A DNA stretch of 21,580 bases from Marine Group I thaumarchaeote (GCA_044358425.1 CP054849.1:700053-721632); one strand, 5' to 3'; counted from the stretch's first letter, positions 7,820-11,844 are shown. Notes: generated by a model from the sequence alone, not told the origin. Made by a program: numbers and translations.

Positions 7820-10483
7820 ATGAAGTTTTGCCCAACATGCGATACAAAACTTTCAAAAAATTTGAAAGATGTTGCAGCTCCAGGAATATGTCCAAAATGC
7901 AATCCTGAAAAAATTATTCCAAGAAAACCAACATATGGAGTCAATTATTCAGGAAGAACAAAACAATGTTCCAAGGGCTGTGGTTCAGAAATTTACTGGG
8001 ATGATGAATTCAAATCAGATAGTGGTAAATTCATTCCTCTTGATGCAAGAACAGATGAGCCACATAGTTGTAATGGTCCAGAAATTTCAGCAGGTTATTT
8101 TCCAGATGAAATAAAAAATATTGGAAAGACAGTAACTCCTAAAAAAATTAAAACAGAATTAAAAATTTCAATACCTGAAAATATTTTATTTGACGTAAAT
8201 AAAATACCAAAATTAGAAGTTGATAACGACATAATTATTCATGAATTAGTAGAAGGTCACAGGAATCAAACATTAGCAATTATTCATTATGAGAAATTAC
8301 TTTCATTAGAGCCAGAAAAATTACCAGTAGAAAATCTCAAAGATGTTTTATCAACAAAAATTATCGAAGGATTAAAAAAATATGGTTTTTCAGGAGTTCT
8401 ACCATTTCAAAATGAATCAATTCGGTCAATTTTAAATGGGGATAATTCAATTATTTCTGCACCTACAGGTTCAGGAAAAACAGAGGCATTCATAATTCCA
8501 ATTTTACAAAAAATTTTAGAAAATCCAATTGAAGGTGTTTTTGTATTATTGGTGTATCCATTAAATGCATTAATCGATGATCAAGTTTCAAAAATTTCAG
8601 ATTTAATAGATAAATGTGAATTAAATGACATAATTTCTACATATTCAATTCATGGTGGGCAAAATTCACAATACAAAGATAAAATAATTTCAGAATCATA
8701 TAAGAAATCAATTATTCTAGCAACAAACTTTGATTTCATTAATTATCATTTAATTTTACAAGATAAAAAATGGAATCAATTATTTAAAAATGCAAAAATA
8801 ATTGTAATGGATGAAGCACATTCATACACTAGTTTTCACGGCTCTAATGTTTACCATGTATTAAAAAGAATGAAAAACTATATGAATAAATTTCAAATCA
8901 TAGGAGCATCTGCAACGTTAGATAACCCTAAAGAATTTTTTTCAAACATGTACGATTTACCTGAAAAATCTTTCACATATATCAAAAGTGAGTCAAAAAG
9001 AAAACAAAATATGCATCGATTTTTCATCATGCCAAGAAAATATGGTCAAAGAACAACTATGGAAATGATTACAACAATATGCAATAAAAAAAAATCTAAA
9101 CAATTAGTATTCAGTAATAGTCATAATGATGCAGAATTTTTAGCATCAAACGTAGAATCTATGAATGAAAAAATAAGAATACAAATTCATCGTGGCGGTT
9201 TAGAACAAAAAGATAGAAAGATGTATGAATCACAAATGAAAGAAGGGGAATTAGATATTTTATCATGTACGCCTACATTAGAGCTGGGAATTGACATTGG
9301 TAATGTAGACGTAGTAATTTCAGCATTCAAAAATGAGTACGATTCATTTATTCAAAGAATTGGAAGAGCAGGAAGAAAAGGACAAAAATCATATGCAATC
9401 TGTGTTTTTGATCCAGAGGATGCAGCATGTCATTATTTTGCACGAAATATCCCTGCATATCTGAATCAAAATCATCATGTTGAAATTAACAAAGAGAATT
9501 CCATAATTTCAGAAAAACATACTGCGTCAATCGGAATGGAAAAACATGCAGCATTAGAATCAGATAAATCCAAATTTTTTGATTTTGCAAATAGTATTAA
9601 TCTAAGAGGAGCATCGGGAGAAATTACAATTTTTCACAACTCAAAAAAAATTGGAACCAGAGACACACCTGTGGGATATTATCAACTTCATCAAAATGGA
9701 ATATATCATTTCAATAAAGAAAATTATCAGGTAAAATCAATAAATAAAACTGAAAACGGTGCAAATGCATTTTTAGAAACATCTAATGAAATTCACAAAA
9801 GGACTATTCCTATTGTGAAGACATCATTAATGCAAGTGACAGAAAAAGACTCAATTAAAAAAGAAATTAATTCACATGTAAAAAAATTATCATTACGTTA
9901 TGGATTGATAAAAATAGATAGAACAATTACAGGATATCTAAAAGGAAATTATAACGATACGTCAGATAAGTTTGAAACGTTTGATGGAAAAACAATATTA
10001 AATTGGAATAATTTTAGTTGGAGTTCAAAACATTATTGTACGAGTATTACTGTACCAACTGAATTCACATCTAAAATAAATGGAGATGTAAAAAATTCAT
10101 TTACGTCAGATTCAAAAATACATACAATTACTCATGTTTTAGTTAATGCAAGTAAAATATTGACAAAATCAGAATCAAATGATATTGACGCATATTATGA
10201 AAATGGAATTATTCATTTGTTTGACAACACATCAGACGGGTATAATGGTTGTAGTAAAATAATTTATGAAAATTTTGAAGAAGTTATGAAAACTTGTTTT
10301 GATTTGATTAGTGAATGTAATTGTAAAGAAGAATCAAATGCGGATCAAGAATCAGCATCAGAGGAATGGGGAGGGTGTCCAAAATGTACATTTACAACAA
10401 ATTATTGTCAAACAAAAAACAAAAATTTATCAAAGAAATCAGCATTAGATTTTTTTTCAATTATGTGTAGTGCAAGTAAATGA
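7820..10483 (+). CDS. DEAH-box superfamily-2 helicase with C-terminal DUF1998/MrfA-type Zn-binding domain (COG1205, YprA/MrfA/Hrq1/DrmA-like) and an N-terminal double zinc module
   Basis: 887 aa. Motif I is APTGSGKT (8459-8482), motif II is MDEAH (DEAH at 8810-8821), motif III is SAT, motif V is TPTLELGIDIG and motif VI is QRIGRAGRKG (from 9353). The C-terminal part carries HTITHVL and a Cys cluster (C826..C863, nt 10295-10408). The N-terminus has CPTC..CPKC and CSKGC..HSC. Confidence 0.85.
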   Translation: MKFCPTCDTKLSKNLKDVAAPGICPKCNPEKIIPRKPTYGVNYSGRTKQCSKGCGSEIYWDDEFKSDSGKFIPLDARTDEPHSCNGPEISAGYFPDEIKNIGKTVTPKKIKTELKISIPENILFDVNKIPKLEVDNDIIIHELVEGHRNQTLAIIHYEKLLSLEPEKLPVENLKDVLSTKIIEGLKKYGFSGVLPFQNESIRSILNGDNSIISAPTGSGKTEAFIIPILQKILENPIEGVFVLLVYPLNALIDDQVSKISDLIDKCELNDIISTYSIHGGQNSQYKDKIISESYKKSIILATNFDFINYHLILQDKKWNQLFKNAKIIVMDEAHSYTSFHGSNVYHVLKRMKNYMNKFQIIGASATLDNPKEFFSNMYDLPEKSFTYIKSESKRKQNMHRFFIMPRKYGQRTTMEMITTICNKKKSKQLVFSNSHNDAEFLASNVESMNEKIRIQIHRGGLEQKDRKMYESQMKEGELDILSCTPTLELGIDIGNVDVVISAFKNEYDSFIQRIGRAGRKGQKSYAICVFDPEDAACHYFARNIPAYLNQNHHVEINKENSIISEKHTASIGMEKHAALESDKSKFFDFANSINLRGASGEITIFHNSKKIGTRDTPVGYYQLHQNGIYHFNKENYQVKSINKTENGANAFLETSNEIHKRTIPIVKTSLMQVTEKDSIKKEINSHVKKLSLRYGLIKIDRTITGYLKGNYNDTSDKFETFDGKTILNWNNFSWSSKHYCTSITVPTEFTSKINGDVKNSFTSDSKIHTITHVLVNASKILTKSESNDIDAYYENGIIHLFDNTSDGYNGCSKIIYENFEEVMKTCFDLISECNCKEESNADQESASEEWGGCPKCTFTTNYCQTKNKNLSKKSALDFFSIMCSASK

Positions 10484-11109
10484 ATTCACTAACAAATGCA
10501 GAATTATTTGCAAAGACAAAACATGGAGGAAAACTGAATGTAATTGGTGTCTCATACTCAAATCACTTAGAAAATGTTGTGAATAGGCTCAAAAGCTTAG
10601 GGGTAATTGATGAGGAAGTACTTTGTGCAGGATGGTTACAAGGTATTTTGGAACACACTGACACAAGTTTTGATGAATTGTTTGAAAAATTTGGTAGAAG
10701 AGTTTCAACATTAATTTTATCATTAACAGAAACCAAACTAGTAATTGATACAAATGATAATTCAACATTATCGTTAACAAAAAAAAGAACTATTTCAAAA
10801 AAACAAAGACAGAAAGAATATGGAATGAAGATAAAAGAGTCAGAGTTAGATGCAAAATTAATTAAATTATGTGACATATCAGCAAACTTAAGTGAATTAA
10901 AAAATCAAGTGATTTCAAAATCTAAAAAAAGACGTATTTTAAGGGAATTAAGATATTATCTTTTAATAATTGAAAAAGATCTTGCAGGACATACAAAATA
11001 TCCACAAATAATTACGTTATTGGAAACAATTAATCAAAATTTGAAAATTCAAAATAACAACATAGTTAAATTAAAAAAGAAATACAACACAGGCACAAAA
11101 AAAATCTAA
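10480..11109 (+). CDS. Mesh1/SpoT-type HD-fold protein with a degenerate metal site (HD replaced by QG)
   Basis: The first ~140 of 209 aa align by eye to the RelA/SpoT/Mesh1 hydrolase domain: KH.G, SYSNHL, GVIDEEVLCAGWLQGILEHTDTSFDELFEKFGRRV, KLIKLCDISANL. The canonical LHD..ED reads LQG..EH (Q54-G55 at 10639-10644). The start overlaps the helicase stop in ATGA. Confidence 0.65.
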   Translation: MNSLTNAELFAKTKHGGKLNVIGVSYSNHLENVVNRLKSLGVIDEEVLCAGWLQGILEHTDTSFDELFEKFGRRVSTLILSLTETKLVIDTNDNSTLSLTKKRTISKKQRQKEYGMKIKESELDAKLIKLCDISANLSELKNQVISKSKKRRILRELRYYLLIIEKDLAGHTKYPQIITLLETINQNLKIQNNNIVKLKKKYNTGTKKI

Positions 11110-11427
11110 AAAGAACAAATTGCAGATCAGAATAAATTAGAAATAAATACTATGGAAATATCGAATAATTATGAATTTAAAGAAAAGCCTTGCAAAGTTT
11201 TGCATAATGAAAAAAGTTCGTGACAAAGCAAACGAAACTGACGACGAATAAAAAAAATTTAAATTTTTAACATCCTAATGGAATATTTGAGTTTTTACAC
11301 AATGTGTTGTATATGGCAAAACCAAAAATTATGGATGCAAAAGTTGCTAACGGTACTAAAAGGAAAAAATTAGTTTTACGTCCCATAAAAATCAAAAATA
11401 AACACGACTATAAAGTTGTGACAGTTT

Positions 11428-11844
11428 CTAATCAACTGTAATTATTAAAACTCCTTTTGTTTTTGGATTTTGTAACTTAGTAACCATTTCTCTAGGCACC
11501 AAATCGGAGGCTTTATCACATTTTACAGACAATGTTCTAGGACATGTAAAATCACTTTTTCGTAAAACAATATCCTCTTGATGAGTCAATGTTAAATTTG
11601 GATGTCCTTTTCCTTTTATAGAGAATTCATCATCCCCAACTTTAATCAAAAATTTAACATTAGTTTCAGGATTTTTTAATTTATTTTTTAATTCTTCAGG
11701 CAAATCATAACATGAAGAGTTAGCACTAACACCTACAATACAATCACCCCGTAGGGTAAGATGAGAATCTTTTGTAATCTCTATGGTATTTTTATGATTT
11801 GATCTAATGTTTTCATGGCCAAAAAATTCAATTTCATACTTCAC
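11428..11844 (-). CDS. DUF371-family archaeal protein
   Basis: 138 aa. FFGHENIRSNHKNTIEITKDSHLTLRGDCIVGV and the C-terminal RTLSVKCDKA pattern match my recollection of DUF371. Uses a GTG start at 11844. Confidence 0.55.
   Translation of the reverse strand: MKYEIEFFGHENIRSNHKNTIEITKDSHLTLRGDCIVGVSANSSCYDLPEELKNKLKNPETNVKFLIKVGDDEFSIKGKGHPNLTLTHQEDIVLRKSDFTCPRTLSVKCDKASDLVPREMVTKLQNPKTKGVLIITVD

Follow-up and report, generated by a model that had tools for sequence, protein, structure and literature searches.

A degenerate Mesh1-like protein in a thaumarchaeal genome

The gene studied here lies in a 21,580-nucleotide stretch of the genome of a Marine Group I thaumarchaeote (GCA_044358425.1 CP054849.1:700053-721632; "the window" below means this whole stretch, with positions counted from its first letter), a genome which consists of one contig of 1.36 Mb. 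The gene (10480..11109, plus strand, ATG start) directly follows a helicase gene and encodes a protein of 209 amino acids. Taking together its open reading frame (ORF), Pfam and profile searches, an AlphaFold2 (AF2) model and Foldseek comparisons, this protein is a degenerate member of the small alarmone hydrolases (SAHs), i.e., proteins of the Mesh1 type, and belongs to the Pfam family HD_4 (PF13328). A preliminary description had proposed that the protein aligns with the Mesh1/SpoT core along residues 41-75 (GVIDEEVLCAGWLQGILEHTDTSFDELFEKFGRRV), that the His-Asp (HD) and Glu-Asp (ED) pairs of this core are substituted, and that hydrolysis has been lost as a consequence.

Membership in the family was assessed through sequence, profile and structure comparisons. 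The protein matched PF13328 over residues 10-156 with 34.8 bits (E = 1.7e-8; the curated cut-off is 27.2 bits), and NCBIfam returned weak, partial matches to spoT_relA models. In a phmmer search of PDB sequences the best matches were fly and human Mesh1 (E = 2e-5), while a profile built from 78 orthologues matched Mesh1 with E = 9e-23, the next matches being Lmo0812, Rel, RelH and the P. aeruginosa SAH. The AF2 model computed on the alignment of these 78 orthologues (mean predicted local distance difference test (pLDDT) 89.5, predicted template modelling score (pTM) 0.86) was then compared with the PDB by Foldseek, which returned the Mesh1 structures 3nqw, 9chy, 5vxa and 3nr1 with a probability of 1.00 and template modelling (TM) scores by target of 0.78-0.80, in alignments of 190-192 columns spanning the whole 178-180-residue Mesh1 chain. 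All of the top 16 matches were Mesh1, SAHs or (p)ppApp hydrolases (TM by target up to 0.80); after Mesh1 came bacterial SAHs and the hydrolase domains of Rel and SpoT, with RelA (5iqr) a weak match. On this model the protein has the Mesh1/SAH fold, and a non-HD fold is excluded. Because the Foldseek alignment covers the entire Mesh1 chain, the SAH fold in its usual form includes helices 147-169 and 176-204 at its C-terminal end; they are not, as the preliminary description had it for the last ~70 residues, a region without recognisable family. A separate C-terminal domain is ruled out by the same alignment, and the Lys-rich, low-confidence tail of the AF2 model is limited to the last ~10 residues.

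To map individual residues, the protein was aligned by HMMER with Mesh1 of fly and human (3nqw, 3nr1, 5vxa). In human MESH1 (hMESH1) the residues H35, H61, D62 and D122 are metal ligands, the phosphate is contacted by Y32 and N126, base stacking is provided by R24, and the substitutions E65A and D66K severely reduce activity (10.1101/325266). In the window protein Q54-G55 (CAA GGT; 10639..10644, plus strand) is aligned under H61-D62 and so replaces the HD metal ligands, with the codons seen on independent contigs, and E58-H59 (GAA CAC; 10651..10656, plus strand) is aligned under E65-D66 and replaces the catalytic ED pair. By contrast, the first metal-ligand histidine is kept as H29 within SNHL (10564..10566, plus strand; hMESH1 H35), and so are D132 and N136 (10873..10887, plus strand) within KLCDISANL (residues 129-137); aligned under D122 and N126, they represent the distal metal ligand and the residue that contacts the phosphate. 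The substrate loop H15-Y26 (HGGKLNVIGVSY; 10522..10557, plus strand), which lies in the stretch K14-Y26 (KHGGKLNVIGVSY), is eroded when compared with the family pattern KHAGQFRADGITPYSKHL. Specifically, in the alignment of HGGKLNVIGVS-Y with H.GQ.R....PY the Gln is replaced by K18, the Arg (hMESH1 R24) by N20 and the Pro before the Tyr is deleted, whereas Tyr26 is kept.

Summed over the family alignment, the equivalents of hMESH1 Y32, H35, E65, D122 and N126 are kept and those of R24 (N20), H61 (Q54), D62 (G55) and D66 (H59) are lost. This means that the metal tetrad H...HD...D has two of its four ligands (H29 and D132), that the catalytic pair has E58 with H59 at the position of D66, and that the nucleotide-binding loop motif with its base-stacking Arg is missing. 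An intact HD dyad elsewhere in the protein is ruled out, as the full sequence of 209 residues contains no HD dipeptide and only four histidines (H15, H29, H59 and H171). The preliminary description was therefore accurate on the core alignment, on the two substituted pairs with their coordinates and codons, on the retained H29 and KLCDISANL, on the eroded N-terminal stretch and on the fold.

Repeated erosion of the active site across the family

To place these substitutions in context, we carried out a census of 102 orthologues and paralogues of the HD_4 protein. Positions 54-55 read HD in 89 sequences, QD in 8, CN in 2, and QG, HE and YD in one each. Positions 58-59 were far more diverse: ED in 45, EN in 24, EK in 11, EH in 8, ES in 4, EQ in 3 and EY in 2, plus the singletons EE, EV, EA, KD and DN. 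In a set of 101 HD_4 representatives at greater distance, 95 had HD and 85 had ED. Since the outgroup paralogues and the Nitrosarchaeum-type branches of the maximum-likelihood (ML) tree carry both pairs, HD together with ED is the ancestral state of the Nitrosopumilaceae.

Fitch parsimony, which gives minimum numbers of changes, was applied to 89 sequences and 181 columns (median column: 10 changes). Position 59 changed at least 21 times between 10 states and ranked 20th of the 181 columns; position 54 changed at least 6 times and position 55 at least 3 times. The corresponding minima were 0 for H29, which also did not vary among 78 family sequences, 2 for E58, 1 for D132 and 1 for N136. This pattern shows that the ED aspartate is unconstrained across the Nitrosopumilaceae orthogroup and that the HD histidine has been lost several times. 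Given that the ED aspartate changed at least 21 times orthogroup-wide, EH is not peculiar to this gene. Close relatives form a graded series (HD/ED, HD/EX, QD/EH and QG/EH, plus a CN/CK branch), and of all the members found in this family, whose active site has worn down repeatedly, none is more eroded than the 209-residue protein.

In the ML tree the clade of the window protein is reached by a long branch of 0.6 substitutions per site (support 100/100). Restricted to the clade after this branch is an insertion of ~17 residues (10717..10776, plus strand; its borders in the alignment are ambiguous, with LSL on both flanks), assigned by DSSP of the model to a β-hairpin with strands 86-91 and 97-102. 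This insert clade also has its own form of the eroded substrate loop, KHAGKLKKSG.T-Y, which reads KHGGKLN.IG in the subclade of the window protein.

Two further observations concern the family at large. Two residues, W52 and C131, do not vary in the Nitrosopumilaceae orthogroup, and a third, C49, is shared by 90% or more of its members; Mesh1 has Leu or Ala at these positions. A second degenerate HD_4 group, found in three genomes (G008, G074 and G058), has GWLCN or GWLCK for GWLHD, i.e., a third Cys in place of the HD histidine, together with an eroded N-terminal loop (copies at L053 6001-6537, L118 512-1054 and L120 5396-5959).

QG as a sublineage variant in a marine clade

We next considered the substitution of the HD pair within a marine clade, represented by 133 distinct sequences with at least 75% identity to the window protein. 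Q54 was found in 131 of the 133 and N20 in 132; H29, E58 and N136 were invariant and D132 was present in 131. Position 55 was D in 114 sequences, G in 8, N in 7 and E in 4, and position 59 was H in 71, Y in 56, D in 3 and N in 3. Counter-examples in both directions, namely QD/ED (L029, L031), QD/EN (L027) and HD/EH (L034), speak against a strictly compensatory link between H54Q and D59H.

QG itself was seen in only 1 of the best 120 cluster representatives, and D to G requires a single A-to-G change, which could be taken to mean that a QD gene was misread in sequencing or misassembled. However, the exact window protein was found on 29 contigs from several sources, and G55 was encoded by 7 distinct alleles, all intact, which were recovered from different samples on 10 metagenome contigs. 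Codons 54-55 read CAA GGT in nine of these contigs and GAA GGT (EG) in the tenth, so that GGT stood at codon 55 in all ten. These independent contigs and alleles rule out an error as the source of QG, a possibility to which we attach practically no weight. G55 is a real sublineage variant inside a mostly QD clade. As to whether QG is conserved or the product of strain-specific decay, an alternative raised in the preliminary description, the two residues differ: Q54 is a property of the whole clade and G55 of one sublineage.

Purifying selection and broken copies

To examine how the gene evolves, we calculated pairwise ratios of nonsynonymous to synonymous substitution rates (dN/dS) by the Nei-Gojobori method. 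For the HD_4 gene the ratio was 0.10 against L036 (96% identity), 0.13 against L002, 0.20 against L027 and L028 and 0.29 against L031, with 0.17-0.29 for the more distant clade members. The same genome pairs gave 0.08-0.12 for the helicase, 0.01-0.06 for a proteasome subunit and ribosomal proteins, and 0.10-0.25 for two adjoining ORFs with hydrophobic N-termini. L001 and L036 differ by 9 nonsynonymous and 21 synonymous changes, with ~4 times as many nonsynonymous sites. Within the QG sublineage 4 synonymous and 6 nonsynonymous changes segregate (pN/pS 0.39, based on few events). No stop codons or frameshifts were found in ~140 marine-clade sequences or in the 10 QG contigs. In this widespread marine population the gene is thus intact and under purifying selection, moderately relaxed in comparison with its neighbours, which argues against simple decay.

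Broken copies do exist in other genomes. The orthologue of the freshwater species Ca. Nitrosopumilus limneticus AOA-LC4 (G049) is cut at 162 residues and its C-terminal part continues in another frame; this frameshifted or split member of the insert clade (L037 6001-6486; L123 533-1131) has the same neighbours as the window gene, without the upstream helicase. Another copy, in G075, carries stop codons.

The neighbouring helicase

The gene directly upstream (7820..10483, plus strand) encodes a predicted YprA/MrfA-type DEAH helicase of 887 amino acids with Pfam matches to DEAD (1.8e-32), Helicase_C (6.7e-19) and the MrfA Zn-binding domain MZB (4.2e-7; 31 bits against a cut-off of 24.2), and with two N-terminal zinc-ribbon-like modules. 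Its stop codon overlaps the HD_4 start codon as ATGA (10480-10483). This overlap is kept in 12 of 12 insert-clade loci, which span 72-100% protein identity and have differing flanking bases. In the sister locus L039 the arrangement of a 113-residue gene, HD_4, DUF371 and psmA is shared, but the helicase is lacking. Full-length orthologues of the helicase (63-98% identity) are present in ~37 of 61 Nitrosopumilus genomes, and a second helicase paralogue of ~837 residues (~35-40% identity) is found in nearly all of these genomes (in G000 at C1:321017-322159).

Neighbourhoods of the HD_4 gene differ by clade, helicase adjacency being limited to the insert clade, apart from a convergent arrangement at some distance in the CN/CK clade, and this rules out the helicase as a family-wide operon partner. 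The link to the helicase is best described as predicted co-expression in one clade, and as suggestive elsewhere, with no family-wide rule. We also considered whether the HD_4 protein is part of a defence system. This was not supported, as PADLOC assigned it to no family at E ≤ 0.01; for the helicase it reported generic helicase cores only. A preprint on YprA helicases does not mention an HD_4 partner.

Other observations at these loci are as follows. The CN/CK copies in G008, G074 and G058 lie ~2.6 kb from the orthologue of the same helicase, convergently, and G058 has, in addition to its CN/CK copy, a QD/ED insert-clade copy elsewhere. In the window, an ORF of 42 amino acids (11313-11441, plus strand) is located between the HD_4 and DUF371 genes and overlaps the 3' end of the latter; it had no family match, and several contigs from metagenomes of this population (L109, L110, L115 and L116) have it called as a gene.

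Distribution, missing synthetase and a canonical paralogue

The orthogroup was present in 41 of the 61 Nitrosopumilus genomes searched and in 1 of 16 genomes from other families of the order. The closest relative of the window's genome in the genome set is Ca. Nitrosomarinus catalina (G010; 95% identity for this protein), and homologues carry the names Nitrosopumilus or Ca. Nitrosomarinus. Scanning species-representative genomes for the pattern yielded 373 relatives; among the best 80 of these, nearly all are labelled Nitrosopumilus, Nitrosarchaeum, Nitrosomarinus or Nitrosopumilaceae, the exceptions being a few broader or unclassified labels and one Nitrososphaeraceae. The earlier remark that RelA/SpoT homologues (RSHs) are uncommon in archaea thus fails locally, i.e., in this genus. 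In a survey of the superfamily the archaeal RSHs amounted to only a handful, none of them thaumarchaeal (Atkinson et al. 2011, PMC3153485), and a 2025 paper on N. viennensis mentions a "putative SpoT/RelA gene" in passing. Where the literature pairs "small alarmone hydrolase" with "pseudo-hydrolase", the portion of it that we covered turned up only work on bifunctional Rel enzymes.

We found no RelA_SpoT synthetase domain (PF04607) over the cut-off in the 61 Nitrosopumilus genomes (G000 and 60 others), in a search which can miss weak members and which was positive in 11 of 14 control genomes. Database names of the kind "(p)ppGpp synthetase II / pyrophosphohydrolase" are therefore unsupported, and "(p)ppGpp synthetase/hydrolase" and "guanosine-3',5'-bis(diphosphate) 3'-pyrophosphohydrolase" are almost certainly wrong for the clade; such names offer no basis for inferring a stringent response in marine Thaumarchaeota. 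Because no synthetase was found, the ancestral substrate was probably another 2'/3'-phosphorylated nucleotide and not (p)ppGpp, by analogy with metazoan MESH1.

A canonical HD_4 paralogue of 187 residues is encoded in G010, G016, G022, G050, G049 and other genomes (L022 (G010:C1:851800-855300); G016:C2:18899-19366; G050:C9:149110-149586). It reads KQHKGQYRKNNKTPYWHHL ... GWLHDSIEDT ... KFADILAN, with all Mesh1 motifs intact, and is ~30-34% identical to the window protein. It was not found in the genome of the window, nor does that genome have an equivalent of the 3.5-kb stretch in which it lies in G010, so that a canonical SAH seems to be lacking here altogether.

Interpretation and alternative explanations

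On balance, and with modest confidence, we interpret the protein as a selected pseudoenzyme, i.e., an SAH-fold protein which has lost Mn2+-dependent hydrolysis and is kept for a non-catalytic binding or scaffold role. The comparisons show an ancestral Nitrosopumilaceae protein with both HD and ED, after which the ED aspartate drifted freely across the family. The long branch led to a marine clade with the β-hairpin insert, the eroded loop and the stop/start overlap with the helicase; inside this clade H54 changed to Q, which became fixed, and D55 changed to G in the sublineage of the window. Under the pseudoenzyme interpretation the Mn2+-dependent hydrolysis of 3'/2'-phosphates typical of the family would no longer be possible, and selection would act on a non-catalytic role. 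The residual pocket of H15, H29, Q54, E58, T60, D132 and N136, near-invariant in the clade, may serve for binding and not turnover, and the most plausible partner would be the co-translated helicase. The proposal of the preliminary description that hydrolysis was lost and the protein retained is thus upheld in so far as the canonical apparatus is gone and dN/dS values of 0.10-0.29 and intact alleles speak for retention. The protein may also be a ligand sensor, as that description suggested.

Several observations weigh against this interpretation. The family is dispensable, as no member of the orthogroup was detected in 20 of 61 genomes of the genus, including 16 with a completeness of 90% or more, and broken copies exist; the HD_4 gene evolves ~2 times as fast as the helicase, so that selection is moderate. 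The coupling to the helicase is limited to one subclade, with the helicase orthologue elsewhere usually far from HD_4 or HD_4 missing, and even one insert-clade copy (L029) is found in another locus without the helicase. Finally, metal could still be bound by H29, E58, H59 and D132, and a remodelled catalytic centre is also compatible with Q54 being fixed.

This last point leads to an alternative that we regard as possible, although on the improbable side, namely that the protein is a remodelled enzyme: a metal-dependent phosphohydrolase in which, e.g., H29, E58, H59 and D132 bind the metal, Q54 donates a hydrogen bond and the substrate is one other than (p)ppGpp. Such an enzyme would explain why Q54 is fixed and not drifting while H29, E58, N136 and D132 are (nearly) invariant in the clade, and why the loss of H54 mostly goes together with His or Tyr at position 59, as if the ligand had moved by one helical turn; an independent Q lineage (L038) is also QD/EH. 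Moreover, as the ED aspartate is dispensable orthogroup-wide, the chemistry may already differ from that of Mesh1, and with no synthetase found the substrate would be non-canonical anyway. However, the central carboxylate ligand of HD domains, D55, is a Gly here and varies between D, G, N and E in the clade. The coupling of Q54 with H59 is loose, as seen from the counter-examples above, and Tyr59, which almost half of the clade sequences have, would be ill suited to stand in for a His ligand. Additionally, the substrate loop has lost its Arg and basic residues, and changes at the ED pair (D66K, E65A) cripple hMESH1 (10.1101/325266). A different explanation, which we consider unlikely, is that the gene is accessory, weakly selected and on its way out, with D55G and similar changes being neutral or slightly deleterious steps before loss. 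It would account for the genomes without the orthogroup, the broken copies in Ca. N. limneticus and G075, the variability of position 55, the pN/pS of 0.39 in the QG lineage and the fact that at larger distances the HD_4 gene has the highest dN/dS (0.20-0.29) among the real genes of the locus. Against it stand dN/dS values that are far below 1 throughout, including the excess of synonymous differences between L001 and L036, the lack of any stop or frameshift in the marine sequences and QG contigs, the ATGA coupling preserved in all 12 loci despite their divergence, and the many invariant columns outside the catalytic site.

The selected-pseudoenzyme interpretation can be extended to a bolder one, to which we assign a distinctly low probability: that in the abundant marine Nitrosopumilus/Nitrosomarinus clade the protein is the helicase's dedicated, non-catalytic nucleotide-sensing subunit and that the orthogroup as a whole consists of nucleotide receptors, not hydrolases. 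If this were true, the remnant pocket would sense a 2'/3'-phosphorylated nucleotide (e.g., NADPH, pAp/PAPS or CoA), the new β-hairpin would dock on the helicase and DNA repair would be coupled to the metabolic state of the cell; the Nitrosopumilaceae would then have SAH-like receptors in archaea that make no (p)ppGpp.

Small alarmone hydrolases are usually taken to be enzymes and archaea to be nearly free of RSHs, and the ammonia-oxidising archaea rank with the ocean's most abundant cells. We consider the family-wide pattern to be of greater weight than the single gene: catalytic residues were lost repeatedly while the fold is under selection, in genomes in which no alarmone synthetase was found. 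The graded series of close relatives is well suited to two questions, namely what a Mesh1-like protein does without (p)ppGpp and by which route an HD enzyme becomes a pseudoenzyme.

Comparison with known systems

What appears to be new here, as judged from sequence, is a stand-alone, archaeal, degenerate SAH. The nearest known proteins are Mesh1 and the SAHs (3nqw, 3nr1, 5vxa, 9chy; 6yvc; 7qod, RelH of C. glutamicum), which are likewise single-domain proteins of ~180-210 residues with an all-helical HD_4 fold and a short β-hairpin. Metazoan MESH1 (HDDC3) shares a further feature, in that it too occurs in organisms without a detectable (p)ppGpp synthetase. Compared with Mesh1, the window protein has the 17-residue β-hairpin after helix 5, the invariant W52 and C131, an archaeal host and a predicted coupling to a helicase. 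The canonical 187-residue paralogue of Nitrosopumilus belongs to the same fold family and the same genus, but keeps every Mesh1 motif.

Loss of motifs with retention for a non-catalytic role is also known from the pseudo-hydrolase domain of the long RSH RelA (RelA[hS], PMC3153485), likewise an HD_4 domain. The RelA domain is, however, fused to an active synthetase and to ribosome-binding domains, whereas the protein described here stands alone in a genome without a detected synthetase, and its loss of motifs is recent and has taken place in grades, HD/ED relatives being found within the genus. A third parallel is provided by the repair pair MrfA-MrfB of B. subtilis (a YprA helicase and its partner hydrolase) and the "YprA-only" housekeeping branch of YprA helicases, where a DEAH helicase with an MrfA Zn-binding domain (DUF1998) is similarly found with a small hydrolase-fold protein predicted to be co-transcribed. 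In contrast to MrfAB, the partner in the window is an HD_4 protein only, without its metal ligands, and not a DnaQ-type exonuclease such as MrfB, and the pairing is confined to one Nitrosopumilus subclade.

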